Shown here: positions 29,760-63,340 of the stretch, piece after piece
How positions within the stretch are numbered: position 1 is the stretch's first letter
Layout: each line of letters starts with the position of its first letter
Assembly: GCA_026770705.1 (NCBI GenBank)
Contig: JANJGN010000071.1
Location: 2,418,001-2,482,000, forward strand
Length of the DNA: 64,000 nt
From: Isurus oxyrinchus
Lineage: Eukaryota
Direction: 5' to 3'
Notes under the pieces: model-generated
Told to the model about the DNA's origin: nothing
The model's database searches: none
What the model saw: the letters and a program-made list of their open reading frames with translations, nothing else
Made by a program: the position numbers and the translations under genes

Positions 29760-29875
29760 TCACTGTTTGTCTCTCCCAGACACAGACTCCAGTGATAGTG
29801 ATACCACAGCCACAAGGAATATCATAGCTCGTATTCCCAGGATCAGGATCACGTGCAGAATCTCTCCTCCACTGT
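29760..29875 (-). CDS. Siglec-like gene A TM/terminal exon (Y)SGGEILHVILILGIRAMIFLVAVVSLSLESVSGRDKQ*
   Basis: tctAG acceptor; phase 1 matches the preceding C2 exon; hydrophobic stretch with Arg; 1-nt deletion relative to the gene B copy. Confidence 0.8.
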
Positions 29876-31575: not shown

Positions 31576-31857
31576 ATTCCACAGTAATGGTTAGGAACCC
31601 CTCCATTGCTCCATGTTCATTCTCTGCCACACACTGATATTCTCCAGTGTCCCTGGATGTAACGTGAGGAATCACCAACCACAGCTCATTGTTGGAACTT
31701 GTTCTGTTCATTGGGACATTAAGATGTCGCCACGTCAGGTTAGAAGCTGGGGAGCTCTCGACAGAGCAGATTATCACTGCAGAATTCCCCTCAATTATAT
31801 TGATCGATGAAGCGTTAATCATATCTGGAGAAGTAATTGAGAGATTCCGTGGTGCGT
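31576..31857 (-). CDS. Siglec-like gene A second C2/I-set Ig exon (DAPRNLSI...CSVESSPASNLTW...DTGEYQCVAENEHG...TVE)
   Basis: 282 nt, phase 1-1, AG/GTGAGT; canonical C-W-YxC. Confidence 0.92.
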
Positions 31858-34378: not shown

Positions 34379-34675
34379 CCTGCACAGTTAGTACGAGGGT
34401 CCGCTCCGATGAAACAGATGGATGTCTCACTCTGCAGCTGAGAGTGTGTCCGTGGTGTTTGAGTGATGGGATCAGGGTCAGAACAGAAGTATAGGTCAGA
34501 GTGACACCATGCTGAGTTACAGTGTTTGAGACTGATCCAGGTACGTCAGTGGGAATGTCCCAGGTTAAGACAGGTGCTGCTGTTCCATTGCACGTTGTGT
34601 TGAAGGTGCAGCTTACATCCACACGCTTTCCTGCAATAATTTCCGCAGGGAATATCGTGGGTTTATCTGTGAAAT
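34379..34675 (-). CDS. Siglec-like gene A first C2-set exon (DFTDKPTIFPAEIIAGKRVDVSCTFNTTCNG...LSCRVRHP...LTVQ)
   Basis: 297 nt, phase 1-1; extra Cys (TTC) typical of the Siglec domain-2 interdomain disulfide. Confidence 0.92.
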
Positions 34676-35403
34676 CTAACAGACAGAGAATGGATCCTTT
34701 TAGAGAAATATAACGTGAAGCATCAGTTCAAATAGAAACCACAGTCCCACAGGAGAAAGTACTTTTACAAGGATGATATCAGAACTGAGAGGTTACAACG
34801 ATCAGGAGAGAATTTCCTGCTTTCAGACTTTGGTGTTTCTGTCTCTCAGCTTAATACACATTCACTCCGAGACACTTGAACTGATAATAGTGGGTGAGGG
34901 TGAAGGAGCAGACCAGAGTTTGGAGTGCACTACCCCATCAGTCACTCAGCGATCTGGGCCATTTAGTACTTTGCAATTTGTGGGAGCTTGCTGTGCGCAA
35001 ATTGGCTGCTGTGTTTCTCACATTACAACAGTAACTACAATTCAGGAATCAGCTCATTGGCTTTGAAGTGATTTGGTCCATGCTGAGGTGGTGAAAGGAT
35101 CTACAGAAATGTGAATCTTTCTTCTGTCGATATGTCAGACTTCGAGACAGGATTAGAGAGATCGATGGGAGTGGATAACCTGAAAACATTGATGGACACA
35201 GTCAATATATTTAATCATTGATATTAAAGTGAGTATTAGATGTTGCTTTAGGACTGAACTGGAAGCTATCACCATGTTATTGAGAATCAGACAGTGTGTT
35301 ATAATAAGCTGTGTTTTGTGTTAATATGTAAACGTCACAGTTTGTGTTATTTCCCTTTGAGTGTTGAATGTGAATTGTTGAGTAATTATAACACAGCACT
35401 TAC

Positions 35404-35440
35404 CAGAAACGTGAAGCTGGGTTACAGCATAGCAGCTGTA
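35404..35440 (-). pseudogene. Remnant 3' end of a second V exon (YSCYAVTQLHVS) inside the gene A intron
   Basis: Retains the GTAAGT donor and downstream intron colinear with gene B 50520-50800; upstream part replaced. Confidence 0.8.
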
Positions 35441-35479
35441 ACAGGGCGTTCGTGAGATTGTAACAGGATCATTGTGTAC

Positions 35480-35960
35480 AGGCAGTTCAGAGAAGCTTCA
35501 CCGGGCTGATTCCTGGGATTAAAGGGCTTGTCCTGTGAGGAAATGTTGAGCAGGTTGGGCCTGTATCCATTGGAGTTTAGAAGAATGAGGGGTGACCTTA
35601 TTGAAACATATCCGATTCCGAGGGGGCTTGACAGGGTGGATGCTGGGAGGATGTTTCCCCCTCGTGGGGGAATCTAGAACCAGGGAGCACAGTTTCGGAA
35701 TGAGGCCTCTCCCATTTAAGACTGAGATGAGGAGGAATTTCCTCTCTCAGAGGGGTGCTAGCCTGTGGAATTCTCTTCCCCAGAAAGCATTGGAGGCTGG
35801 GCCATTGAATAGACTCAAGGCTGAGTGAGGCAGGTTTTTGATCGACAAGGGAGTCAAGGGTTTGGGGGACAGGCAGGAAAATGGAGTTAAGGCCACAACC
35901 AGATCAGTGAGAGCAGGCTCGAGGGGACGAATGGCCTGCTCCTGTTCCTATTTCTTATGT
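35480..35960 (+). mobile_element. CR1 LINE 3' fragment
   Basis: FKTEMRRNFLSQRGASLWNSLPQ and CR1 tail. Confidence 0.8.
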
Positions 35961-36479
35961 TCCTACATTCTTACCATCTTAAAATATTAAAGCTGCAGAA
36001 TAAACATGCAAGTGACTGACCCGCTCGACCCACCTTCCATCTGGGGGTCCCATGGGGAGGACCCTTCCTGAGCCAGGTCCACCAGCCAACATGGTCTGGA
36101 TCCGAGCACAGGAGACACGGGGGGGAGTGACTAACAGGCTCCTTGTGACAGGCCCCATCTGTCCAATGGCTGGCTTTCAGCTGCCAAGGCCAGAGTGGTC
36201 CTTGCTAAAACCAGCTCAGGACAGGCCAGGACCCCTGTGCAGACCCCCTCCAGCGCTGCAGCCTCTGTACAAACCCCTCATGCGCTTGTGGAGAGACACA
36301 AACAAGGCTGCACATTACCGAGGAGAATCCCCTCTACGGACTAAGGGGCTGACTCATCACCTCAAACTCAGCAAATGAGGAGGCTCTCACTCGGTATCGG
36401 GGCTTGGCATTGGCTCAATAAAAATAATCAAATTACATTTTGGTCAGAAATCTAAGGATGTTGTACATTCCCTCAAAAA

Positions 36480-38140
36480 TAAGACTCAAGGCTGAAGGCA
36501 CAGCTGCTGATGTTGGAGTGATGGGATCGGGGGATGGTCAAGAGGCTGGAATTGGAGGAGCGCAGAGACCTCAGAGGGTTGGAGTGACTGGAGGAGGTTA
36601 CAGAGATAGGGAGGGTTGTAGGGGCTGAAAAAGTTAAGAGAGATTGGGAGAGTGTAGGGTCTGGAGGAGATTACAGAGATAGTGAGGGTTGTAGTGATTG
36701 GAGGAGTTACAGAGATAGGGAGGGTTGTAGGGGCTGGAGGAGGTTACAGAGATAGCGAGGTTTGTAGTGATTGGATGAGTTATAGCGATAGGGAGGTTTT
36801 TAGGGGCTGGAAAAGTTAAGAGAGATTGGGAGAGTGTAGGGTCTGGAGGAGTTTGCAGAGGTAGGGAGGGTTGTAGTGACTGGGGCAGGTTACAGGGGCA
36901 GGGAAAGTTGTCGGGACTGGAGCAGGCTACAGAGATACGGAAGCTTTTAGGGGCAGGAGGAAGTTACAGAAATAGGGAGGTTTGTAGTGGCTGGAGGAGG
37001 TTGCAGAGATTGGTAGGTTTGTTGGGCAGGATGAATTTACAGATATAGTGAAGTGGTAAAGGCTTGAAGAGGTTACAGAGAATGAGATGGTTGTAGGTCC
37101 TGGAGGAGGACGAGGAGATTACAGAGATAGTGAGGAATCAAAGATGAAAATTGTGACATTGAGACTTTGCTTGACCAGGAGCCAGTCTCGGTCATCGAGC
37201 AGAGCGGGTGATAAGGGAACGGGACTTGGTGTGAGTAAGGACGTGGTCAGCATTTTTGGATGGCCTCAAGTTTATGGAGTGTAGACCGTGTGTTGGAACA
37301 GTCGAGTCTGGAGGTAATGAAGGCGTGGATGAGGGTTTCAGCAGCAAATGAGCTGAGACAGGGTGAAGTCGTGCGATGTTACGGAGGTGGAAATAGACGG
37401 TGTTAGTGAGGGCGCAGATATGAGGCCGGAAGCTCATCCCAGGATCAAATGGGACAACAAAGCTGTGAACAGATTGGCTTCAATCTCAGAGAGCTGCCAG
37501 GGAGAGGAATGGAGTTGGTAGCGAGGGAACAGAGTTTGGAGCGGGGAATGAAGACAATGGCTTCAGTCTTTCCAATATTTAATTGGAGGGAATTTCTGCC
37601 CATCCAGTACTGCATGTTGGATAAGCAGCCTGATAATTTAGCAGCTGTGGAGGAGTCGAGAGAGGTGGTGGTGAGGTAGAGCTGGGGATCCTCAGTGGAC
37701 AGGTGAAAACTAACACTGTTCAGATGATGCTGCAAAGCCATTGCAAGTGATTCTCTGGCTACGATGAGATGGATAAGAATGGAGCCAGGGGAGAGCAGTC
37801 CCACCCAGCTGGACGACAGTGGAGAGGTGTTGGAGGAGGATGGTGTGGTCGAGCGTGTCAAAGGCTGCAGACAGATCGAGAAGGACGAGGAGGGAAAGTT
37901 GACCTTTGTCACAGTCACACAGGATGCCATTTGTGACCTTGATAAGAGCTGTTTCAGCACAGTGGCTGGGGTGGGAACCTGATTGGAGGGATTCAAACAT
38001 GGAGTTCCGGGAAAGATGGGAACGGATTCGGGAGATGGAAACACGTTCAAGGACTTTGGAGGGGAAAGAGAGGCTGGAGATGGGACGGGGGTTTACACGG
38101 ACGGTGTGAGGGGTGGAAGGTGTAGTGGGGAGGAGATACT
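36480..38140 (-). mobile_element. L2 LINE fragment with embedded 37-bp minisatellite (36585-37130)
   Basis: RPISSLSFPSKVLER, HCAETALIKVTN, LVLLDLSAAFDTLDH and LQLNIGKTEAI; 37275-38140 duplicated at 61875-62745. Confidence 0.88.
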
Positions 38141-38364
38141 TCACTCAGGGGGGAGGTGTCATCACCCCTCAGCTCGGTTTACGTTACAGCTATGATGTGG
38201 ATTCAATCACACACAATAAGCTCATGGATCTGGGAGCAGAAATAGACAAATCATTAAAAATAGTGACGCTGGTTAACACGGCCAAAAAACAAGCAAATCA
38301 AACACTATTATTTCCCATTGAGTGTTGGATGTGAATTGGTGAGTAATTATAACACAGCACTTAC

Positions 38365-38742
38365 CAGAAACATGAAGCTGGGTTTCAGGGTAATAGTTAT
38401 GGCTCGGACCATTGTCAAATTTTATTGTGAACAAATAACGTCCGGCATCTTCCCATCTGATGTTGTTAATAATCAGGGAACAGTCGCCATCTTTCAGGTC
38501 TCCAGACAGTCGGCTCCGATGGTGGAACTGTGGTAACTCGTGACTGTGATCCTTGGAGTGAAAGGCTACAGACCATTTAGAATATTTGTTCCGTATGTAC
38601 CTTCTCATATACCAGATTCCAACATGTCGTTTCTTTACCAAATCTGATGGATAACTGTAATGACATGGAATCTGTACACACGAAACTTCCTGTGCTGTCA
38701 ACGCTCGTGGAGTGTCACCTTTCCACTCTTGTGACAGTCCAA
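38365..38742 (-). CDS. Siglec-like gene A V-set exon
   Basis: 378 nt, phase 1-1; Siglec cysteine pattern CVQIPC...W...GDLKDGDCSL; F strand reads YLFTIK (essential Arg absent). Confidence 0.92.
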
Positions 38743-40669: not shown

Positions 40670-42650
40670 ATCCAGTCCAAGTTTCACTTTGGCCTGTGAG
40701 CAGAACACAGCTCACACAGTTTGGCTGCAGGTGTCTCCCAGCTTTCTATCCTTGTTCTCATGTCCCTGTTCTTAATAAATGAACCCACAATGTATTTACC
40801 CAATTCCGTATCAGTTGTTGGTGCCTTTATATCATTATAAAAACACAACATGGTGATCAGCGGTGGCCAAACATTCTGGCAGCAAGATTCAGTACAGGTA
40901 TGACGTGGTGAACAGCCTTAGATCGAGCTACATGACATGAGACGACCCTCGACGCTTTGGTCAGACCACAACAGAGACACAGCATCAGAGAGGGTTGAAA
41001 TCGCAGTGTACTGACTGCTCAGGAAACCTTTGAAGACACAGTGACGGGAAAGAGCTCAAGTAAAGAGCTGGGGAGCAGACGGATCCCTCGTGGTGAGATT
41101 ACAGCACACGGCCTGTAGGTCAGTGAGTGGGACAGTGTGTATCGCCAGGACCAGCAGCGGGTTAGCTCAGTCAGGGAAGGCGAGTGACCAGGGTGTGGGC
41201 TGGATCGATAGTGAGCGAGGGAGAGTCAAACACACAAAAACCATTATAAAAATCAGCCCAGAGAAGTTAGTGATTTTAACGGGCGGCTTCGAGATTGCTG
41301 AACAGCAAATTGAATAAAAAACAAAGACTCCATTACTCCGTGGTGTGTTCCTGCCACAACCCGTCTTCGTGGGCGGAGCTTCGGAAAAGCACACAAAAGG
41401 GGCTAAAGCGACACTCATCCCAGGTCCTGTAGGAGAAGGAAGGTCAAAGGAATATTGTCAGAATGTCCACGAAATTCCCCAGTTTGAACTGGGATGTAGC
41501 TGACCGACAATCTGAATTCAGAATGTTTAAACAGCGTACAGAGCTCTGGTTTCCTGATTCAGCTGTGACTGAACCAGACGAGCCACCCATAAAAATTCAC
41601 CTCGCGATTGGGAATGAAGGTCTACACAGGCTGAACACGTCAGGATTAACAGCAGAAGAGCGAAAGGATCCCCAATAGATATGGACGACATTGGAAGACA
41701 GGTTCAGAATCAGGTGAAACTCCATATTCATCAACTAGAGTTTATGTCATTTCATCAGCCTACACAATCCATAGACCACTTCATCAGCCGATGTAGAGAA
41801 AAGGGTACGCACTGTGATTTCAAACACAGAGCCTGCAGACAGAGTTGTTGAGTTGGTGATCGCATCCACTCCCATGGAAGCCTTCCAGAAAGATCTGCTA
41901 GATAAGACCAAAACCTATAGCATTGAAGAGCTACTCAAGGATGGACATAAATACGAAGTGATCCTCGCAGGTCAACGAAGCTTACAGGTCCTCAGTACAA
42001 CATCAATTATTGACACACTCACTAGAACATCCAAACCTAGTGAGACGTGTGGAAGGTGTGGCCTTCTGCAGGCACCATGGAAATGCCCAGCTTTCCACCA
42101 ATCCTGCAAGGCTTGTGGCAGAAAGGGCCTTTGACAGCGGCAGGGCACTAGAGCAAAGGCTGATGCAGCTACAAAGAGCCGTGCGCTGATCCAAACAAAC
42201 CCTGCACAATGGGGAACCTTCAAGCAATAAGAATGACCATCCGCTATCCCATCAGGAACATATACATGTGGTGACTGACAAGCCAGGAAATGGCGATGAT
42301 GTACACGACGAGACTAGGAGCGGTGATCAATATTCCACCTCTCACACATATCCTGACGTGGCTTGCCAAATAATTGTGGATTGTGGTCCTTATTGATCTC
42401 TCTTGGCACATCAAATAAACTGAAAATGTCCCATAGGGGTGGGATTTTCTGGCCCCACCCACTTCCATGATTGTCCAGTCCGGCCAAAAGCCAATGGATT
42501 TATGTCTGTCCCAGTCTATCCCATCAGCTCAGTTCATGACATAACATTGAAATATGCAGAAAGATTCAACAATATTGGCAGTTTCAAAGGAGCTGCAACA
42601 TTACACCTGCAGGACAATGCAAGTCTGTCAGACTCCTTGCATTAAAATTA
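40670..42650 (+). mobile_element. Ty3/Gypsy 5' LTR end, PBS and degenerate gag
   Basis: LTR end ACAACA then TGG PBS-like at 40851; gag MSTKFPSLNWD...FRMFKQR; knuckle CGRCG...CPAFHQSCKACGRKG. Confidence 0.8.
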
Positions 42651-44017: not shown

Positions 44018-44057
44018 CTTCGAGAAGTGACAGGAGGAAGTAGGATTTCCCGATCAT
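44018..44057 (-). CDS. Siglec-like gene A signal-peptide exon MIGKSYFLLSLLE
   Basis: Acceptor tttcacAG before 44097; ATG 44057; phase-1 donor GTAATA; in frame with the V exon; assembled protein 370 aa. Confidence 0.82.
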
Positions 44058-47325: not shown

Positions 47326-50300
47326 TCAAACAGTCTGTCGACTTCCTTTCACTGTTTGTCTCTCCCAGACACAGACTCCAGTGATAGTGATAACCACAGC
47401 CACAAGGAATATCACAGCTCGTATTCCCAGGATCAGGATCACATGCAGAATCTCTCCTCCACTGTCTAGAGAACACACAGAAAGAAATCATCACTGACTC
47501 TCCGCTTTCAATCTCTCACTCTGGCTGAACAATCAAGCTTCATATCACTGCAACATTTGCTGTAATATTGACCCATCCACTGGGATTCAATGTGGAATGA
47601 ATGTTTTCCTTGTAAACACTCTAAGAGTGGACAATCGGAACTTTCCCCTTAGCGTGGAACATTGGTGAGAATGGATCATTGTGCTGTTGGACTCCCTGTC
47701 CAATGTTACTCTCCATCGCTGTGTACAGGATTGTGCTGTAGAAAATTCTGGAAACGTTTAGTGCAGGGTGGAAATCCATCTCGGACGCGTGTGCGAATCG
47801 AGCAGAATCGAGATGGACTTCCCCACGGACTTACACCCCCCGCTTAATAAACAGTTCCAATCTTTACCCAGAGAGAGGGGAGAATGTGGAACTCACTCCC
47901 ACAGGGATTGGTTGAGGTGAACAGTATCGATGTATTTAAGGGGCAGGAGGGTCGGTAACCAGAGGGACACAGATTGACCAACTGGAGGGGGAGATGAGGA
48001 GAATTTGTTTTGACAGAGCGAGTTGTTGTGATCTGGAAGGTGCTGCCTGAAAGGGCGGTGGAAGCAGATTCAACAGGAACTTTCAAAAGGGAAATTGGAT
48101 AAACACTTGAAGGAGGAAGATGGGGTAAAGTGGAGTGGTGGTTAGTGGATCTGATTGGATAGAACATTGAAAGACCTGGCACAGGCACAGTGGGCTGAAT
48201 GGCCTCCTCCTGTGCTGTATCATTCTCCGCTTCCATGATCTCTCCCCCAGTCAGTAACCACTCCAGATCCCTCTTGAAGGCGACAGAGAAACAGGAACTA
48301 CCACACCCACTGACAGCACATTCTCAAGGATCCCTACTCTCTGGGAAAAGATGAACTCCCCAACATCCAGCCTATTCCTGCTTCCCAGAGAGTGTAAACC
48401 CTTCAGGGAGGCACTGAGGAAGTTTTCAATAAAATGAATTATCAAATCTATCATTTGAGAAATAATTTAATTCTGATGAACTCACAGCTTGTGTAGCAAA
48501 CTGGGAAGTGGAGTTGCTTGAAAAGCTGGGAAACACAAGGATTAAGTGCTACAATGCCACCACTGGTGGGAGACTGTAACTACAGCGTGACGTTTACATA
48601 GGCAGTCATCATTATAAACAGGGGCATTGGACATACTGGGAAATATGTGCACTGGAAAGGTGAGTAAATGATGTAAGATTTTCACCAGCAGGAATTCTCT
48701 AACTAAACCTCTCCACTTCTCTCTTACTCTCAGATACACAAACAAAATCACACAGAATCAGATAAGGAGGAGTTGGGGCCGGTGATTGTTCGAAGGGTTA
48801 GCTTTCAGGAAGCTTCTTAAAGGGAGAGAGAGAGTTGGAGAGGCAGAGAGTATCTGTGAGTGTCTCTATGCATCTGAGTGTCTGTAATAGACTTTGTAAT
48901 TTCCATTTCTTCCATAAACATGATTGGGAACACAAATCCCAGAATCCAGGCCAACTCTCCAGTGCAGTACTCAGGTAAGCCACAGGGCAGTGTGTGCTAG
49001 TGTGTTTGTTTGTGAGTGTGTCTTTGTAATTGCTCATACATGTGTGTCTGCATGTGTCTATTTAGTTCTGTATATTTGTGTGTGTTTGTGCAATGTTTGA
49101 ATCTGAGAGAGATGTTGATGTCTGTGTACACTCACGTTCCACAGTGATGGTTATGAACCCCTCCACTGCTCCATGTTCATTCTCTGCCACACACTGATAG
49201 TCTCCAGTGTCCCGATATGTAATGGGAGGAATCACCAACCACAGCTCATTGTTGGAACTTGTTCTGTTCATTTGGACATTAAGATATCAGGGCAGGAATC
49301 AAGAAGCCCGTTCGCAGGATTACCAACAGAAAGAGAACCACAATTTATACTTAATGGGAAGAGAGTGCTGATTGGTTGGCAAGTGGTCTCTGATAGGTGG
49401 AGGTGTTGCCATGGAGAATGGTGTGTGCGAGATGTAAACTTTAGACAGCTTGTCTCTTTATTCAGTAATAATCAAATAAAGATCAATTAACTTCAATCGA
49501 CTGTGAAGCACTTTGAGAGGTCTGAGAATGTGGACACTGAGAACGGGCTGCACTGTCAGAGGGTCAGCGCTGAGGGAGTGCTGATGTAGAATGAAAGGTG
49601 TATGTACTTACCTTGCACAGTTAGTACGAGGGTCCGCTCCGATGAAACAGATGGATATCTCACTCTGCAGCTGAGAGTGTGTCCGTGGTGTTTGAGTGAT
49701 GGGATCAGGGTCAGAACAGAAGTATAGGTCAGAGTGACACCATGCTGAGTTACAGTGTTTGAGACTGATCCAGGTACGTCAGTGGGAGTTTCCCAGGTTA
49801 AGACAGGCGCTGCTGTTCCATTGCACGTTGTGTTGAAGGTGCAGCTTACATCCACATGCTTTCCTGCAATAATTTCAGCAGGGAATATCGTGGGTTTATC
49901 TGTGAAATCTAACAGACAGAGAATGGATCCTTTTAGAGAAATATAATGTGAAGCATCAGTTCAAATAGAAACCACAGTCCCACAAGAAAAAGCACTTTTA
50001 CAAGGATGATATCAGAACTGAGAGGTTACAATGATCAGGAAAGATTTTCTTGCTCTTTGGCAGTAGTGTTTCTGTCTCTCAGCTTAATACACGTTCACTC
50101 CGAGACATGTGAATTGAGAACACTGGATGAGAGAAGAGGCTCAGACCAGAGATTGGAGTTAAAAGCAGAATACTGCGGATGCTGGAAATCTGAAACCAAA
50201 ACAAAAATTGCTGGAAAGACTCAGCAGGTCTGACAGTATCAGTGGAGAGGAAGACAGGGTTAACGTTTCGAGTCCGTATGACTCTTCATCAGACCAGAGG

Positions 50301-51884
50301 TTTGAGTTCACTGGCTTCTCATTTCCTCAGTGATCTGGGTGATTTATCACCTTGTGGTTTGTTGGATCTTGCTGTGCACAAACTGCCTGCTGTGTTTTAC
50401 ATCTGTGACTACAATTCAGGAATAATTTCATTGGCTGTGAAGGGATTTGGATCCTCCTGAGGTGGTAAATTGCGCTGCAGAAATGCACATCTTTCTTTTA
50501 TCGATACGTCAGACTTTTAAACAGAACAGGAGAGATTGATGGGAGTGGATAACCTGATAATACAGTTAATGCTTTTCATCATCGATAGTAAAGTGAGTAT
50601 TAGAGGTTGCTTTAGGACTCAACTGGAAGTTATCACCAGGTTATTGAGAATCAGACAGTGTGTTATAATAAGCTGCGTTTTGTGTTAATATGTAAATGTC
50701 ACAGTTTGTGTTATCTCCCATTGAGTGTTGAATGTGAATTGTTGAGTAATTATAACACAGCACTTACCAGAAACGTGAAGCTGGGTTACAGGATAGTAGC
50801 TGTATCTATTCCAGCTGTCAAATTCTATTCTGAAAAAATAAGGTCCTGCATCTTCCCGTCTGATGTTGTTTATAATCAGGGAACAGTCGCCATCTTTCAG
50901 GTCTCCAGACAGCCGGGTACGATGGCGGAATCTTTGATCCCTGTGACTGTGACCCTCGGAATGAAAGGCTATAGACCATTTCGGCTGTGGGTTCCCATCT
51001 ATTCCTTTCAAGCAGATTCCGACACGTGATCTCCCTACGAAATTTGATAAGTAACTGTAATGACATGGAATCTGTACACACAACCATCCTGCGCTGTCAC
51101 CTCTCGTGAAGTGTCGCCTTTTCAATCTTGTGACAGTCCAACTGGGGAGAGAAATCTCAATATTTGACTCTGGATAGTTTGTAGATCAACTAGACTCGAT
51201 ATCCACCCCCTCCATCACTGGGGCTCAGTGGCTGCAGTGTGGACCATCTACAGGACACACAAGGAATTCCCCAAGGTTTCACAACGGATGGAAGAGAATC
51301 CTGGACACAGGAGTGGACAAGTTCATTCTACATTGGCTCATGGTCCTCAGGACCCTGTTTAGTGAAGCCAGTCTTCCACCCAACACAGTGTCTACAAGAT
51401 ACACAGGGAAACTGTGTAAACATCTCATCTCTCTACACTGACTGGTTTGAGCTTCAGTTTAACTTTCAGTATTTTTAAATTTCCATATTGTGGTTGCTAT
51501 GGTGAAACTGTGCAGGAAGTGCGAGGGCTGGACTCTCTGTCTATTCTCACTGCAGCTGTGATGTGGTCGTGGTGATTCTCAGTAAAATGAAACCCTCTGA
51601 GCTCCTCCATCCCCGAGGTTTAGGGAGTGAATTCCAGAGCTCAGGCCCCAGGCAGCTGAAGGCCCGGCCGCCAGTATTGGAGTGATGGGAATCGGGGGAT
51701 GGTCAAGAGGCCGGAATTGGAGTAGCACAGAGATCTGGGAAGTTGTTTGGGTGAGTTGCAGGAGGTTACAGAGATAAAGAGATAAGAATGATCTTTTACA
51801 AAGACTGTTAAACATAAATCTGTCCAAGCTGACGATGATATTACCTTGGAGAAGTGACAGGAGGAAGTAAGATTTCCCGATCAT
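47326..51884 (-). pseudogene. Siglec-like gene B, activating-type pseudogene. Exons: signal 51884-51845, V 51141-50768, C2 49908-49612, partial C2 49285-49136, TM 47465-47326
   Basis: V exon has TGA at 51124-51122, a 1-nt deletion (374 nt) and Trp->Cys; second C2 exon lacks its 5' half and acceptor; TM exon intact: SGGEILHVILILGIRAVIFLVAVVITITGVCVWERQTVKGSRQTV*. Confidence 0.88.
50258..50295 (-). ncRNA. Minimal type-I hammerhead ribozyme-like core in a Penelope-like short element
   Basis: Minus strand ggt-CTGATGA-a-gagtc-atacg-gactc-GAAAcgtta-acc; stem I only about 3 bp. Confidence 0.4.
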
Positions 51885-55234: not shown

Positions 55235-55351
55235 TTATAAATTCCCATAAACAGAATCCTTGGCAAAATCACAGTTTGCGTAAAGATCATCATCTGCATC
55301 AGGATTGACTCCGCGGTGAGATTTCATTTCCAGATCCTTCTCATCTTTCTT
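55235..55351 (-). CDS. Siglec-like gene C terminal cytoplasmic exon KKDEKDLEMKSHRGVNPDADDDLYANCDFAKDSVYGNL*
   Basis: ctattacAG acceptor; phase 0; two tyrosine motifs; TAA 55237-55235. Confidence 0.85.
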   Translation of the reverse strand, partial: KKDEKDLEMKSHRGVNPDADDDLYANCDFAKDSVYGNL

Positions 55352-55449
55352 CTGTAATAGAAACAGAAATGATCAGAGTGACAATCAGAGTGATCAGTGT
55401 TTAGTATTATTGATCCAAATCAAAAATTGCACCCACAGTAGATACATTA

Positions 55450-55760
55450 ATTATTGATACTGAATGCGGTTTGATTATTGAAACTGAACGGGGTTTGATT
55501 ATTGAATCTGAACGGGGTTTGATTATTGATTCTGAACGCGGTTTGATGATTGATACTGAAAGGGGTTTGATTATTGATACTGAACCGGGTTTGATTATTG
55601 ATAATAATCGGAGTTTGATTATTGATATTAAATGGGGTTTGATTATTGATTCTGAACGGTGTTTGATTATTGATACTGAATGGGGTTTGATTATTGATAC
55701 TGAACGGGGTTTGATTATTGATTCTGAACGGGGTTTGATTATTGATTCTGAACGGTGTTG
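55450..55760. repeat. 24-bp minisatellite (ATTGATACTGAACGGGGTTTGATT)n in the last intron of gene C
   Basis: About 13 units, directly visible. Confidence 0.9.
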
Positions 55761-55888
55761 GGTGTGAGTTTGGTTGGGTTTGGGAGTGACTGTATAAAAC
55801 ATTGCAGATACAGGACTGGAGCAGCCATATCAATAACCAGGCTACTGGAGCAGCTGAGAGGCTGGGGATCCTGTGGTGTGTGACTCAC

Positions 55889-55993
55889 CTGATTCCTCAA
55901 AGCCCAACCACGCTCACAATTTTCATAAACAGGACCTCGATATTCATCAACACGATGGTTCGATTTGATTCCTGCTTTCCCCTCGCCTCTCTT
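55889..55993 (-). CDS. Siglec-like gene C cytoplasmic exon KRGEGKAGIKSNHRVDEYRGPVYENCERGWALRNQ
   Basis: 105 nt, phase 0-0, ctattacAG / CAG|GTGAGT. Confidence 0.85.
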
Positions 55994-56504
55994 CTGTAAT
56001 AGAGATGGAAATGGACAGAGTGACAATCAACATGATGTGTATTCGGTGTTGGGTTTGATTATTAGGGAGAGGGTTCCAGATTTCCACTCCCCTTTGTGTG
56101 AAGAAGTGCTTCCTGACATCACCCCTGAACGGCCTGGCTCCAATCTGAAGTTCCAGCCCCCTTGTTCTGGACTCCACCCGACCCCCACCACCCACCCCCA
56201 CCCGAGGGAATAGCTTCTCTCTATCGACCCTATCGAGTGTTTAATCAGTTTGAACCCCTCAGTTAGATCACTTCTTAATCTTCTAGACCCGAGGGAATAT
56301 AATCGTAGACTGTGTGTAACCTGTCTGCACAATTTACCCAGAAAGATGTTCTGTACAACAGACTTGAGCCTCACACCCAGATCTCAATAATCAGTGGAAA
56401 TCTTTCAAAGGCATCAATCATTGGAATCTGTCTTTATAAAGTCACAACATCAACAAAGGACGGTGTTGGTGGTGGAAGTGAATTCCAGTCGTTCCGTTAC
56501 TTAC

Positions 56505-56589
56505 CCAGGACCTGTCCGACTGCTCGCCTGGGGAGGAACTGCCCACACGCTCTGCTTGGGCTGAATGATCTCTTCCTGTGCTGCTCCCT
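56505..56589 (-). CDS. Siglec-like gene C first cytoplasmic exon (K)GSSTGRDHSAQAERVGSSSPGEQSDRSW
   Basis: 85 nt; the only candidate found that bridges phase 2 (TM exon) to phase 0 with an open frame; GTAAGT donor; weak acceptor. Confidence 0.6.
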
Positions 56590-57243
56590 CTGTGTGTTTA
56601 ATTAGAAAGGGTGAATGTGTCACTGTGAGTCAAATCAGGAATTGGGGAACAATTGTGAAAACCCTTTCACTGAAACGTAGGGCCTTAGTGTTGTGTTGTA
56701 AGCAAACTGTTAACCCTTTGTGTCCTGACTCTGTGACGTGATTCCTGTGTAAAGCTGAGCAGTCGTTGAGCGAGTTTCAATTCACTGCTCACTCCAGGTG
56801 TTGAGGTGGATCTTCTGAAGGAGCATATGTTGCTCAGCGCTCCTTAAAAATGTGAGAGACTGAACAACGTGTAAGAGGACGAGAGAGAGAATGAGAAGGA
56901 GAGCATTAGTGGAGATTGGAGAGAGAGTGAATGAAACATGGAAAATGGAAAGAGATTGCATTCACTAACAAAAGAAAGGTTTTTATTTGTATAGCAGCAT
57001 TCACAAACTCAGGAGGTCACAAGGTATTTTATGGTCCAGGTCAACACTGCCAGTTACAGGACTGAGTTGTGAAACAGTGAGTGTTGGATGAGATGTTAAA
57101 CAGTAGGTGAACATCAAAGCTCTTCAGGGGCTGTGGAGGGTTTTGGATTGTAAAAGGTGCTATAGAAATGCAAGTTCTTTCTATAAGGAGAGAAGTTTGA
57201 AGAAAACATGTTCAAAAACAACCAATTAATCCTTCACACTTAC

Positions 57244-57340
57244 TTTCTCACACACTTGAAGATGAAGAATCCACTCAGTCCAACACTCAAACAGATTCCA
57301 GCTCCAAGCAATCCTGCTTTCCATTCATTGGAATCTCGCC
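57244..57340 (-). CDS. Siglec-like gene C TM exon (R)RDSNEWKAGLLGAGICLSVGLSGFFIFKCVR(K)
   Basis: ttttacAG acceptor; 97 nt; phase 1-2; GTAAGT donor; uncharged TM followed by basic stop-transfer residues. Confidence 0.88.
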
Positions 57341-58605: not shown

Positions 58606-58887
58606 GTTCCACAGTGATGGTTATAAATCCCTCCACTGCTCCATGTTCATTCTCTGCCGCACACTGATAGTCTCCAGTGTCCCTGGATGTAACGTGAGGA
58701 ATCACCAACCACAGCTCATTGTTGGAACTTGTTCTGTTCATTGGGACATTAAGATGTCGCCACGTCAGGTTAGAAGCTGGGAAGCTCTCGACAGAGCAGA
58801 TTATCACTGCAGAATTCCCCTCAATTATATTGATCGATGAAGCGTTAATCATATCCAGAGAAGTAATTGATGGGTTCCGTGGTGCAT
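58606..58887 (-). CDS. Siglec-like gene C third C2/I-set exon
   Basis: 282 nt, phase 1-1, intact. Confidence 0.92.
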
Positions 58888-59973: not shown

Positions 59974-60255
59974 ATTCCACAGTGATGGTTATGAATCCCT
60001 CCACTGCTCCATGTTCATTCTCTGCCACACACTGATAGTCTCCAGTGTCCCTGAATGTAACGTGATAAATCACCAACCACAGCTCATTGTTGGAACATGT
60101 TCTGTTCATTGGGACATTAAGATGTTGCCACGTCAGGTTAGATGCTGGGAAGCTCGCGACAGAGCAGATTATCACTGCCGAATTCCCCTCAATTATATTG
60201 ATCGATGAAGCATTAATCATATCAAGAAAATTAATTGAGAAATTCTGTGGTGCAT
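59974..60255 (-). CDS. Siglec-like gene C second C2/I-set exon
   Basis: 282 nt, phase 1-1, intact; donor lies next to an N-gap. Confidence 0.9.
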
Positions 60256-61000: not shown

Positions 61001-61297
61001 CTTGCACAGTTAGTACGAGGGTCTGCTCCGATGAAACAGATGGATATCTCACTCTGCAGCTGAGACTGTGTCCGTGGTGTTTGGGTGATGGGATCAGGGT
61101 CAGAACAGAAGTATAGGTCAGAGTGACACCATGCTGAGTTACAGTGTTTGAGACTGATCCAGGTACGTCAGTGGGAGTGTCCCAGGTTAAGACAGGTGCT
61201 GCTGTTCCATTGCACGTTGTGTTGAAGGTGCAGCTTACATCCACACGCTTTCCTGCAATAATTTCAGCAGGGAATATCGTGGGTTTATCTGTGAAAT
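61001..61297 (-). CDS. Siglec-like gene C first C2-set exon
   Basis: 297 nt, phase 1-1; 5 aa differences from the gene A copy. Confidence 0.92.
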
Positions 61298-61874: not shown

Positions 61875-62745
61875 GTGGAGTGTGGAGCGTGTGTTGGAAC
61901 AGTCGAGTCTGGAGGTAATGAAGGCGTGGATGAGGGTTTCAGCAGCAGATGAGCTGAGACAGGGTGATGTCGTGCGATGTTACGGAGGTGGAAATAGACG
62001 GTGTTAGTGAGGGTGCAGATATGAGGCCGGAAGCTCATCTCAGGATCAAATGGGACAACAAAGCTGTGAACAGATTGGCTTCAATCTCAGAGAGCTGCCA
62101 GGGAGAGGAATGGAGTTGGTAGCAAGGGAACAGAGTTTGGAGCGGGGAATGCAGGCAATGGCTTCAGTCTTTCCAATATTTAATTGGAGGGAATTTCTGC
62201 CCATCCAGTACTGGATGTCGGATAAGCAGCCTGATAATTTAGCAGCAGTGGAGGAGTCGAGAGAGGTGGTGGTGAGGTAGAGCTGGGGATCCTCAGTGGA
62301 CAGGTGAAAACTAACACTGTTCAGATGATGCTGCAAAGCCATTGCAAGTGATTCTCTGGCTACGATGAGATGGATAAGAATGGAGCCAGGGGAGAGCAGT
62401 CCCACCCAGCTGGACGACAGTGGAGAGGTGTTGGAGGAGGATGGTGTGGTCGAGCGTGTCAAAGGCTGCAGACAGATCGAGAAGGACGAGGAGGGAAAGT
62501 TGACCTTTGTCACAGTCACACAGGATGCCATTTGTGACCTTGATAAGAGCTGTTTCAGCACAGTGGCTGGGGTGGGAACCTGATTGGAGGGATTCAAAGA
62601 TGGAGTTCCGGGAAAGATGGGAACGGATTCGGGAGATGGAAACACGTTCAAGGACTTTGGAGGGTAACGAGAGGCTGGAGATGGGACGGGGGTTTACACG
62701 GACAGTGTGAGGGGTGGAAGGTGTAGTGGGGAGAAGACACTTCAC
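61875..62745 (-). mobile_element. L2 LINE fragment shared with the gene A intron
   Basis: Near-identical to 37275-38144. Confidence 0.88.
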
Positions 62746-62965
62746 TCAGGGGGGAGGTGTCATCACCCCTCAGCTCGGTTTACGTTACAGCTATGATGTG
62801 GATTCAGTCACACACAATAAGCTCATGGATCTGGGAGCAGAAATAGACAAATCATTAAAAATAGTGATGCTGGTTAACACGGCCAAAAAACAAGCAAATC
62901 AAACACTATTATTTCCCATTGAGTGTTGGATGTGAATTGTTGAGTAATTATAACACAGAAATTAC

Positions 62966-63340
62966 CAGAAACGTGAAGCTGGGTTTCAGGACGGTCGTTG
63001 TATCTATTCCTGTTGTCAAATTCTATTCTGAAATAATAATATCCTTCATCTCCCCATCTGATGTTGTTTATAAACAGGGAACAGTGACCATCTTTCAGGT
63101 CTCCAGACAGCTGAGTCCGATGGTGGAACCGTGGTAACTTGCGATTATGATCCTTGGAGTGAAAGGCTATAGACCATTCATTCCATGTTTCCCAATTCCT
63201 TCTCATATACCAGATTCCGACAGGTGATCTCGATACTAAATATGATGGATAACTGTAATGACATGGAATCTGTACACACAAACCTTCCTGCGCTGTCACC
63301 TCTCGTGGAGTGTCACCTTTCCACTCTTGTGGTAGTCCAG
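62966..63340 (-). CDS. Siglec-like gene C V-set exon with essential Arg (YYYFRIEF)
   Basis: 375 nt, phase 1-1; CVQIPC / GIW / GHCSL / YYFR Siglec signature; signal exon not found within the window. Confidence 0.93.

Follow-up and report, generated by a model that had tools for sequence, protein, structure and literature searches.

Has an activating-type shark Siglec that lost its essential arginine been repurposed by selection, or is it on its way out? The question arises from a 64,000-nucleotide stretch of Isurus oxyrinchus DNA, analyzed here as a whole and called the window. Six-frame reading finds three related immunoglobulin-domain genes on its minus strand, running C, B, A from the right end leftward, and on its plus strand fragment D, the remnant of one Siglec-like gene (Table 1). 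All 74 longer-protein matches in a protein search with the V domain of gene A are from sharks or rays, and most bear Siglec-, CD33-, CD22- or MAG-like names, so that, judged by its sequence relatives, the window is a shark Siglec cluster, probably a lamniform one. Closest to the V domain of A are Cetorhinus and Carcharodon proteins (75–77% identity), while the C2 exons are 93–97% identical to Carcharodon proteins. From the 74 proteins we extracted 124 V domains, 103 of them unique and full-length.

Table 1. Siglec-like genes and gene fragments of the window, with their exons and selected sites.
Feature	Position	Strand	Remarks
Gene A, signal-peptide exon MIGKSYFLLSLLE	44018–44057	-	Glu; Gln in 19 of 21 homolog variants, Glu in none
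Gene A, V-set exon (V1 type)	38365–38742	-	open frame; Thr105 at essential Arg site; AG/GT, phase 1
Gene A, Thr codon	38426–38428	-	ACA (AGA in B and C); single G>C change at 38427
Gene A, intron after V exon	37280–38364	-	97.9% identical to intron after C V exon
Gene A, second-V-exon stub	35404–35440	-	37 nt; donor intact; upstream junction is a repeat also at 13051–13112
Gene A, C2-set exon	34379–34675	-	intact; 0 departures at 64 conserved columns (homolog mean 2.2)
Gene A, I-set exon	31576–31857	-	intact; 2 departures at 49 conserved columns (homolog mean 1.7)
Gene A, TM exon	29760–29875	-	Arg in LGIRA; 1-bp deletion near 29803; new stop 29762–29760
Pseudogene B, signal-peptide exon	51845–51884	-	
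Pseudogene B, V exon	50768–51141	-	Arg codon retained (50831–50829); early stop and 1-bp deletion
Pseudogene B, C2 exon	49612–49908	-	open
Pseudogene B, I-set exon	49136–49288	-	3′ half only
Pseudogene B, TM exon	47326–47465	-	Arg in TM; ancestral frame
Gene C, V exon (V1 type)	62966–63340	-	Arg retained (63029–63027)
Gene C, C2 exon	61001–61297	-	
Gene C, first I-set exon	59974–60255	-	
Gene C, second I-set exon	58606–58887	-	
Gene C, TM exon	57244–57340	-	uncharged
Gene C, three cytoplasmic exons	55235–56589	-	56589–56505, 55993–55889, 55351–55235
Fragment D, signal exon and most of V exon	12452–12497 and 13318–13607	+	

The interval singled out in the preliminary description coincides exactly with the V-set exon of A, and the F strands read as given there: YLFTIK in A, YYFRIE in C and YFFRIE in B. 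The arginine is indeed lost in A and kept in C and B. In phmmer alignments Thr105 of A stands opposite Arg97 of sialoadhesin and the Arg that ends the YYFR motif of MAG. Across the 124 shark and ray V domains the site is occupied by Arg in 116, Lys in 5, Tyr in 2 and Ser in 1, and never by Thr; among the 103 unique full-length domains, 98 have Arg. The change to Thr is real in this sequence and rare, and it is very likely disabling for canonical sialic-acid binding. We defined conserved columns on the 103 domains as those with at least 95% identity. A departs from these 26 columns at three (G19V, T76S and R105T) and C at none; at least three departures are found in 6 of the 103 homologs.

Apart from this residue, A looks like a Siglec. 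Its N-terminal V-set domain has the Siglec fold and is followed by a C2-set domain; Pfam reports V-set and Ig_CD22 in the former and C2-set_2 in the latter. An AlphaFold model of the V domain (29-sequence alignment) has a mean pLDDT of 84.3, with strand 100–108 carrying the site, and its best structural matches by Foldseek are sialoadhesin and MAG; the best PDB matches of A by sequence and fold are MAG, sialoadhesin and Siglec-5/7/8. C21 and C26 (near strand B) and C87 (strand E), which we take to be the disulfide cysteines, align with cysteines of MAG and sialoadhesin, and strand F has no Cys. The essential F-strand Arg is present in B and C and absent from A. A Roman-numeral naming convention separates Arg-less Siglecs from bona fide ones, according to PMC6288428; by it, A would be a Siglec-family gene and not a bona fide sialic-acid-binding Siglec.

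The F-strand Arg binds the sialic-acid carboxylate and is described as essential (PMC13358205). By established Siglec chemistry, a V domain without it would be unable to form this salt bridge, so that canonical sialoglycan binding by A would be lost or much weakened. The earlier claim that A avoids sialoglycans stands to this extent, since loss of canonical binding follows from Siglec biochemistry (PMC13358205, PMC6288428); the selective story attached to it fares less well, as set out below. Residual binding of sialylated glycans by A, whether weak or by way of a second site, seems to us quite improbable. Trp6 and Tyr116 are retained, two F-strand residues, Arg101 and Lys107, lie on either side of the site, and Siglec-6 is reported to bind glycolipid independently of the canonical pocket and its Arg (PMC10122656). 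Yet Lys107 and Arg101 occur in 5 and 7 of the 103 homologs, beside an intact Arg, so neither is a compensating novelty in A, and loss of the Arg is reported to abolish binding by Siglec-XII and ape Siglec-5/14 (PMC6288428 / PMC7379906).

The preliminary description took A for the surviving activating gene; a derived frameshift in its TM exon and a deleted second V exon argue otherwise. The frameshift is a TT>T deletion that gives A a new tail by recoding its last 13 codons. All 13 Arg-TM homolog proteins, collected by the V-domain search and a search with the TM exon of B, keep the frame of B, matching it at 7/13 to 19/21 residues; by this comparison the deletion is derived in A. None of the 13 positions of the shifted tail is matched by the Arg-TM homologs, and no 6-mer from it occurs in any of the 92 proteins of the set classed below. 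A hydrophobic 23-residue window with Arg at position 11, as before the shift, survives (KD 2.47, against 2.84 in B). A has the basic TM and the motif-free tail, without Tyr, of an activating Siglec, but the C-terminal half of the TM and the stop-transfer tail are not preserved as in homologs. Splicing, through AG/GT sites throughout, gives 370 codons of uninterrupted reading frame, and the shifted stop falls within the final exon.

Our evidence for the second V exon comes from its stub and from homologs. The intron after the stub is 96–97% identical to the intron after the V exon of B. In a V-domain tree of 54 rows (lamniform domains and a subset of other sharks; the bootstrap is rough and not settled), A, C and 10 homologous domains form one group, V1, with support 90/80; the tree resolves this group only, not the ortholog of A. 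Nine of the 10 homologs directly precede a second V domain, and nine carry Arg at the site and one Lys. A was most likely V1-V2-C2-I-TM ancestrally, to judge from this arrangement, and would have lost V2 later; a fusion between two adjacent genes would look no different. C is without the 2-kb segment that holds the stub in A (35257–37274; junction in C at 61875/61876, minus strand), and so C too seems to have lost its second V exon, and cleanly. A single V exon is all that C and B show in the window as well, so that loss of V2 alone is no mark of death. In A, deletion of V2 would leave no Arg-bearing V domain and hence no canonical ligand. An AG in the stub could create a 32-nt exon (35435–35404) that, if spliced in, would end the frame of A with a stop after 143 codons (codon 144). 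Among the 14 acceptors that we scored, that of this exon has the poorest pyrimidine tract (10/17, against 11–14 in the others), which makes skipping plausible.

We put at roughly 55% the probability that A is a recently relaxed, decaying activating-type copy in a birth-and-death cluster, in the manner of SIGLEC12 and SIGLEC17. The cluster would evolve by duplication, exchange and loss, and A, with its TM Arg and no tail motif, would recently have come under relaxed selection, its lesions being the Arg>Thr change, G19V, the TM frameshift and the loss of the second V exon. It would then be in retirement, either turning into a pseudogene or persisting as a surface protein without ligand, and B would be an older casualty that died through other lesions. 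B is the pseudogene it was said to be, with a stop and a 1-bp deletion in its V exon and half of its I-set exon missing. For retirement we count the death of two further Siglec-like genes in the window (B, and D, which is cut in its V exon), the departures of the A V domain at 3/26 columns, the Glu in its signal peptide (found in 0/21 homolog variants), the V2 stub and the derived TM deletion. Against it we count the open 370-codon frame, the canonical splice sites, the Arg-bearing hydrophobic span, the normal V fold and the undecayed C2 and I-set exons; moreover, T76S is a conservative V-domain departure, and R105T is simply the Arg change. Wider decay across the Ig exons was not found in C2 or I-set, where A has 0 and 2 departures against homolog means of 2.2 and 1.7. 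Decay, if occurring, would thus be recent in onset. An indel-rate test is uninformative here, as two indels in 2023 non-coding A/B bases give P ~0.11 for a neutral indel in the TM exon.

Single-base lesions in a draft sequence with four N gaps raise another reading, in which the Thr codon, the TM deletion (TT>T) or both are an assembly error or a private allele and the usual A is an ordinary Arg-bearing activator. The Arg>His change of ape SIGLEC5 and SIGLEC14 is reported as polymorphic (PMC6288428, PMC7379906), so there is precedent for an allele. We consider this improbable: the 3113 coding bases that make up 15 further exons of A, B and C are free of indels (95% upper bound ~0.11 per exon of this size), the deletion of V2 is impossible as a single-base error, and several independent oddities converge on A.

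Whether C is an inhibitory partner of A is a separate question. The frame of C is open from V exon to stop for 545 codons; no signal-peptide exon for it was found within the window. The tail Tyr motifs are DEYRGP, PVYENC, DLYANC and SVYGNL, of which all but the last are counted as YxN, a Grb2-type motif. SVYGNL, at the terminus, is alone in fitting the ITIM consensus (as given in PMC7226832), and 6 of 13 homologous tails fit it at the same place. A separate shark Siglec tail class carries LYAN- and EYAQ-type motifs. This two-motif tail, which we take to resemble the classic pair of ITIM and ITIM-like motif, is absent from the window. C may be inhibitory, its tail suggests, but with one ITIM-like motif and the rest YxN the statement that it is so is not clearly borne out.

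The introns after the V exons of A and C (61880–62965 in C, minus strand) are identical at 97.9% over 1085 bases with no indel, pointing to recent exchange. The V domains themselves are 69% identical in amino acids and 84.8% in nucleotides (dS 0.29), against a dS of 0.027 for C2. The step from 97.9% to 84.8% places an exchange boundary at the exon end, with V exons shuffled as modules. The V domain of A is as near to other lamniform paralogs as to C (up to 77% over full length). A is a mosaic, with a B-like 5′ block (93.4%), a B-like TM block (96.5–97.6%) and the C-like intron. Paired Siglecs are marked by near-identical V domains maintained by gene conversion, which A and C do not have; they are neighbours exchanging DNA, not a matched pair. 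Like SIGLEC5/14 and SIGLEC11/16, they are adjacent genes, one with a charged TM and one with a tyrosine-bearing tail, that show traces of sequence exchange. However, the converted block of SIGLEC11/16, 97–99% identical, is reported to take in the V exon (PMC5701461), unlike the 84.8% of A and C, and in ape SIGLEC5/14 the Arg change affects both members (PMC6288428 / PMC7379906), whereas here it affects the activator alone.

Positive selection on the V domain of A was considered from the A–C comparison (dN/dS 0.68) and rejected: a dS of 0.29 beside an intron only 2% divergent marks the two V exons as paralogs of older date that exchange has reshuffled, and the ratio is uninformative on A's own branch. 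The C2 and I-set exons, with 1–7 synonymous differences, have too few for dN/dS.

Do shark activating-type Siglecs tend to lose the arginine? We took the unique V domains of 92 proteins and assigned each to a class by whichever TM motif follows it first, on automated models that often fuse neighbours. The site reads 16 R, 1 S, 1 K and 1 Q in the Arg-TM class (n=19), 39 R, 3 K and 3 Y in the ITIM-type class (n=45), and 22 R and 1 Y in the YxN-type class (n=23); unclassed domains (29 R, 2 K, 1 S; n=32) were left out of tests. With distant subfamilies included, Arg loss is not significantly enriched in the Arg-TM class (p=0.61–0.68). Same-subfamily tests drop six distant domains (two in P0080 and four Tyr-type), which leaves 15 R, 1 K and 1 S among Arg-TM domains (n=17); neither non-Arg residues (2/17, against 3/64 for non-charged TMs; Fisher p=0.28) nor, among homologs alone, non-basic residues (1/17 against 0/64, p=0.21) are then significantly enriched. 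Adding A and C brings the non-basic count to 2/18 against 0/65 (p=0.045), where A is the case that prompted the test. The two non-basic cases are the Thr of A and a Ser in Scyliorhinus torazame P0075. This is a hint, which would fit repurposing of activators and their faster decay alike. A tail-based control search for inhibitory genes yielded 12 new proteins, four with a V domain (two Arg, two Tyr).

The selective explanation would make A an expressed activator that dropped its Arg to ignore self sialoglycans, took a protein or other non-sialic ligand and signals through an ITAM adaptor recruited by its TM Arg. We hold this to be unlikely. It accords with the open frame, the intact C2 and I exons, the retained Arg-bearing TM and the normal fold, and with the p=0.045. 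It also has a model in rodent Siglec-H, which like A has a charged TM and no ITIM: Siglec-H is DAP12-coupled, and in the account of PMC4986536 no sialic-acid binding was found, a pathogen ligand is hypothesised, and the rat protein has Ser at the Arg site where A has Thr. Siglec-5/14, too, are reported to bind a streptococcal protein without sialic acid (PMC6288428). Siglec-H, however, is expressed, conserved and functionally characterised, with Lys as its TM residue, whereas A has Arg there and is known from its sequence alone. The p=0.045 counts A, a gene chosen for the trait, and gives way to 0.21 with homologs alone and to 0.61–0.68 with distant subfamilies; the P0075 model is truncated at its N-terminus. 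Neither the TM frameshift nor the loss of V2 is predicted, and with V domains only 69% identical A would be no decoy for the ligand of C.

The wider story told in the preliminary description, in which an Arg-less activator survived and the Arg-keeping one was killed, thus meets activating-type relatives that mostly keep the Arg (15/17) and an A that is itself lesioned. Its suggestion that A binds a pathogen protein is unsupported, given the TM frameshift, the lost V exon and the lack of a homogenised V domain shared with C. Distinctly unlikely is a broader version, in which repeated replacement of the Arg by a small hydroxyl residue in shark activating-type Siglecs (Thr in A, Ser in P0075) would amount to convergence on rat Siglec-H. 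A would then be a live, sialic-acid-blind activating receptor with one V domain, a newly frameshifted tail and a non-sialic ligand.

Retirement has closer counterparts. Human SIGLEC17 and SIGLEC12 are like A in that the essential Arg is mutated together with damage to the frame; their lesions truncate the ORF, whereas the shift in A rewrites the last 13 codons only. Siglec-17 is reportedly DAP12-coupled. One review calls it inhibitory. Its gene carries Arg>Trp and a 1-bp deletion (PMC6288428, PMC7379906). Siglec-XII, placed among the inhibitory Siglecs, underwent R122C and then acquired common null alleles, a course read as retirement (PMC6288428, PMC7379906). The parallel with SIGLEC12 drawn earlier therefore points the other way: an inhibitory Siglec lost its Arg in retirement, with null alleles after. 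A differs in being of activating type, and we take the origin of its lesion as independent. Null alleles of activating Siglecs are reported as common in humans (PMC6288428 / PMC7379906), and Arg loss in Siglecs is covered in PMC7911748 and PMC8615218 as well.

The closest Arg-TM relatives keep what A has lost. The Carcharodon carcharias "Siglec-12"-like models P0018 and P0024 and the "CD33-like" P0032, all from RefSeq annotation, share with the window genes the cluster type, the V and C2 domains and the Arg-bearing TM exon (95–97% identical in C2, and 89–93% to the TM exon of B). Unlike A, they have Arg in 5/5 V domains and the ancestral TM frame; P0018 and P0024, also unlike A, carry a pair of V domains but lack an I-set domain, and each of these two models starts inside V1.

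Fragment D belongs to a different line. It is 92% identical to Cetorhinus P0084 over 104 residues; its V exon ends just before the Arg-equivalent residue, replaced by unrelated sequence, and no later exons were found in the window. P0084 and P0089, both from Cetorhinus, have Tyr at the Arg site and an ITIM-type tail, and Tyr is also found there in Pristiophorus P0016 and Heptranchias P0030. The oldest Arg-less shark lineage observed thus appears to be that of these Tyr-type relatives of D, and not an activating one. It is old and conserved, and arguably a better candidate than A for a sialic-acid-independent receptor.

The loss of the arginine holds at residue level, and the interpretation built on it is partly supported. 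Arg loss in Siglecs is, in the sources cited, already well documented, and a live Arg-less activator would have its precedent in Siglec-H. If A is decaying, it is a shark example of Siglec clusters shedding members, often by Arg loss together with frame damage, and of modest value. Should A turn out to be expressed and under conservation, it would represent a natural activating Siglec blind to sialic acid, found in a lineage whose split from mammals came very early, and a one-codon system in which selection for Arg loss in activators could be tested; a live Arg-less activator would mean that Arg loss as a counter-trap strategy arose in cartilaginous fish independently of mammals. A wider point, possibly weightier than A itself, is the expanded shark Siglec family, with charged-TM genes, two-motif ITIM-type tails and YxN-type tails. 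A teleost study describes fish as without inhibitory CD33-related Siglecs and makes no mention of sharks (PMC7226832). Among the open-access matches listed, no paper is devoted to shark Siglecs.

Several minor features of the locus deserve record. ORFs 41775–42131 and 13567–14457, both on the plus strand, resemble retrotransposon gag fragments by eye; Pfam gives no match for 41775–42131 or 13567–14082. The former sits in the 5.3-kb first intron of A and the latter interrupts D. Both A and B are preceded, ahead of their signal exons, by a copy of the first cytoplasmic exon of C together with its donor site (44594–44505 and ~52430–52345, minus strand), in blocks 93–97% identical to 56340–56660; its role may be that of a 5′ untranslated exon. 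In Cetorhinus, models P0035 and P0036 run through a comparable layout. In A and B an out-of-frame ATG precedes the signal-peptide ATG by 22 bases (44079 and 51906, minus strand), and some automated homolog models begin at its position. Finally, the shark Siglec models P0001, P0002 and P0003 have four to seven tandem V domains with Arg in all; they are either genuine multi-V receptors or fused gene models.
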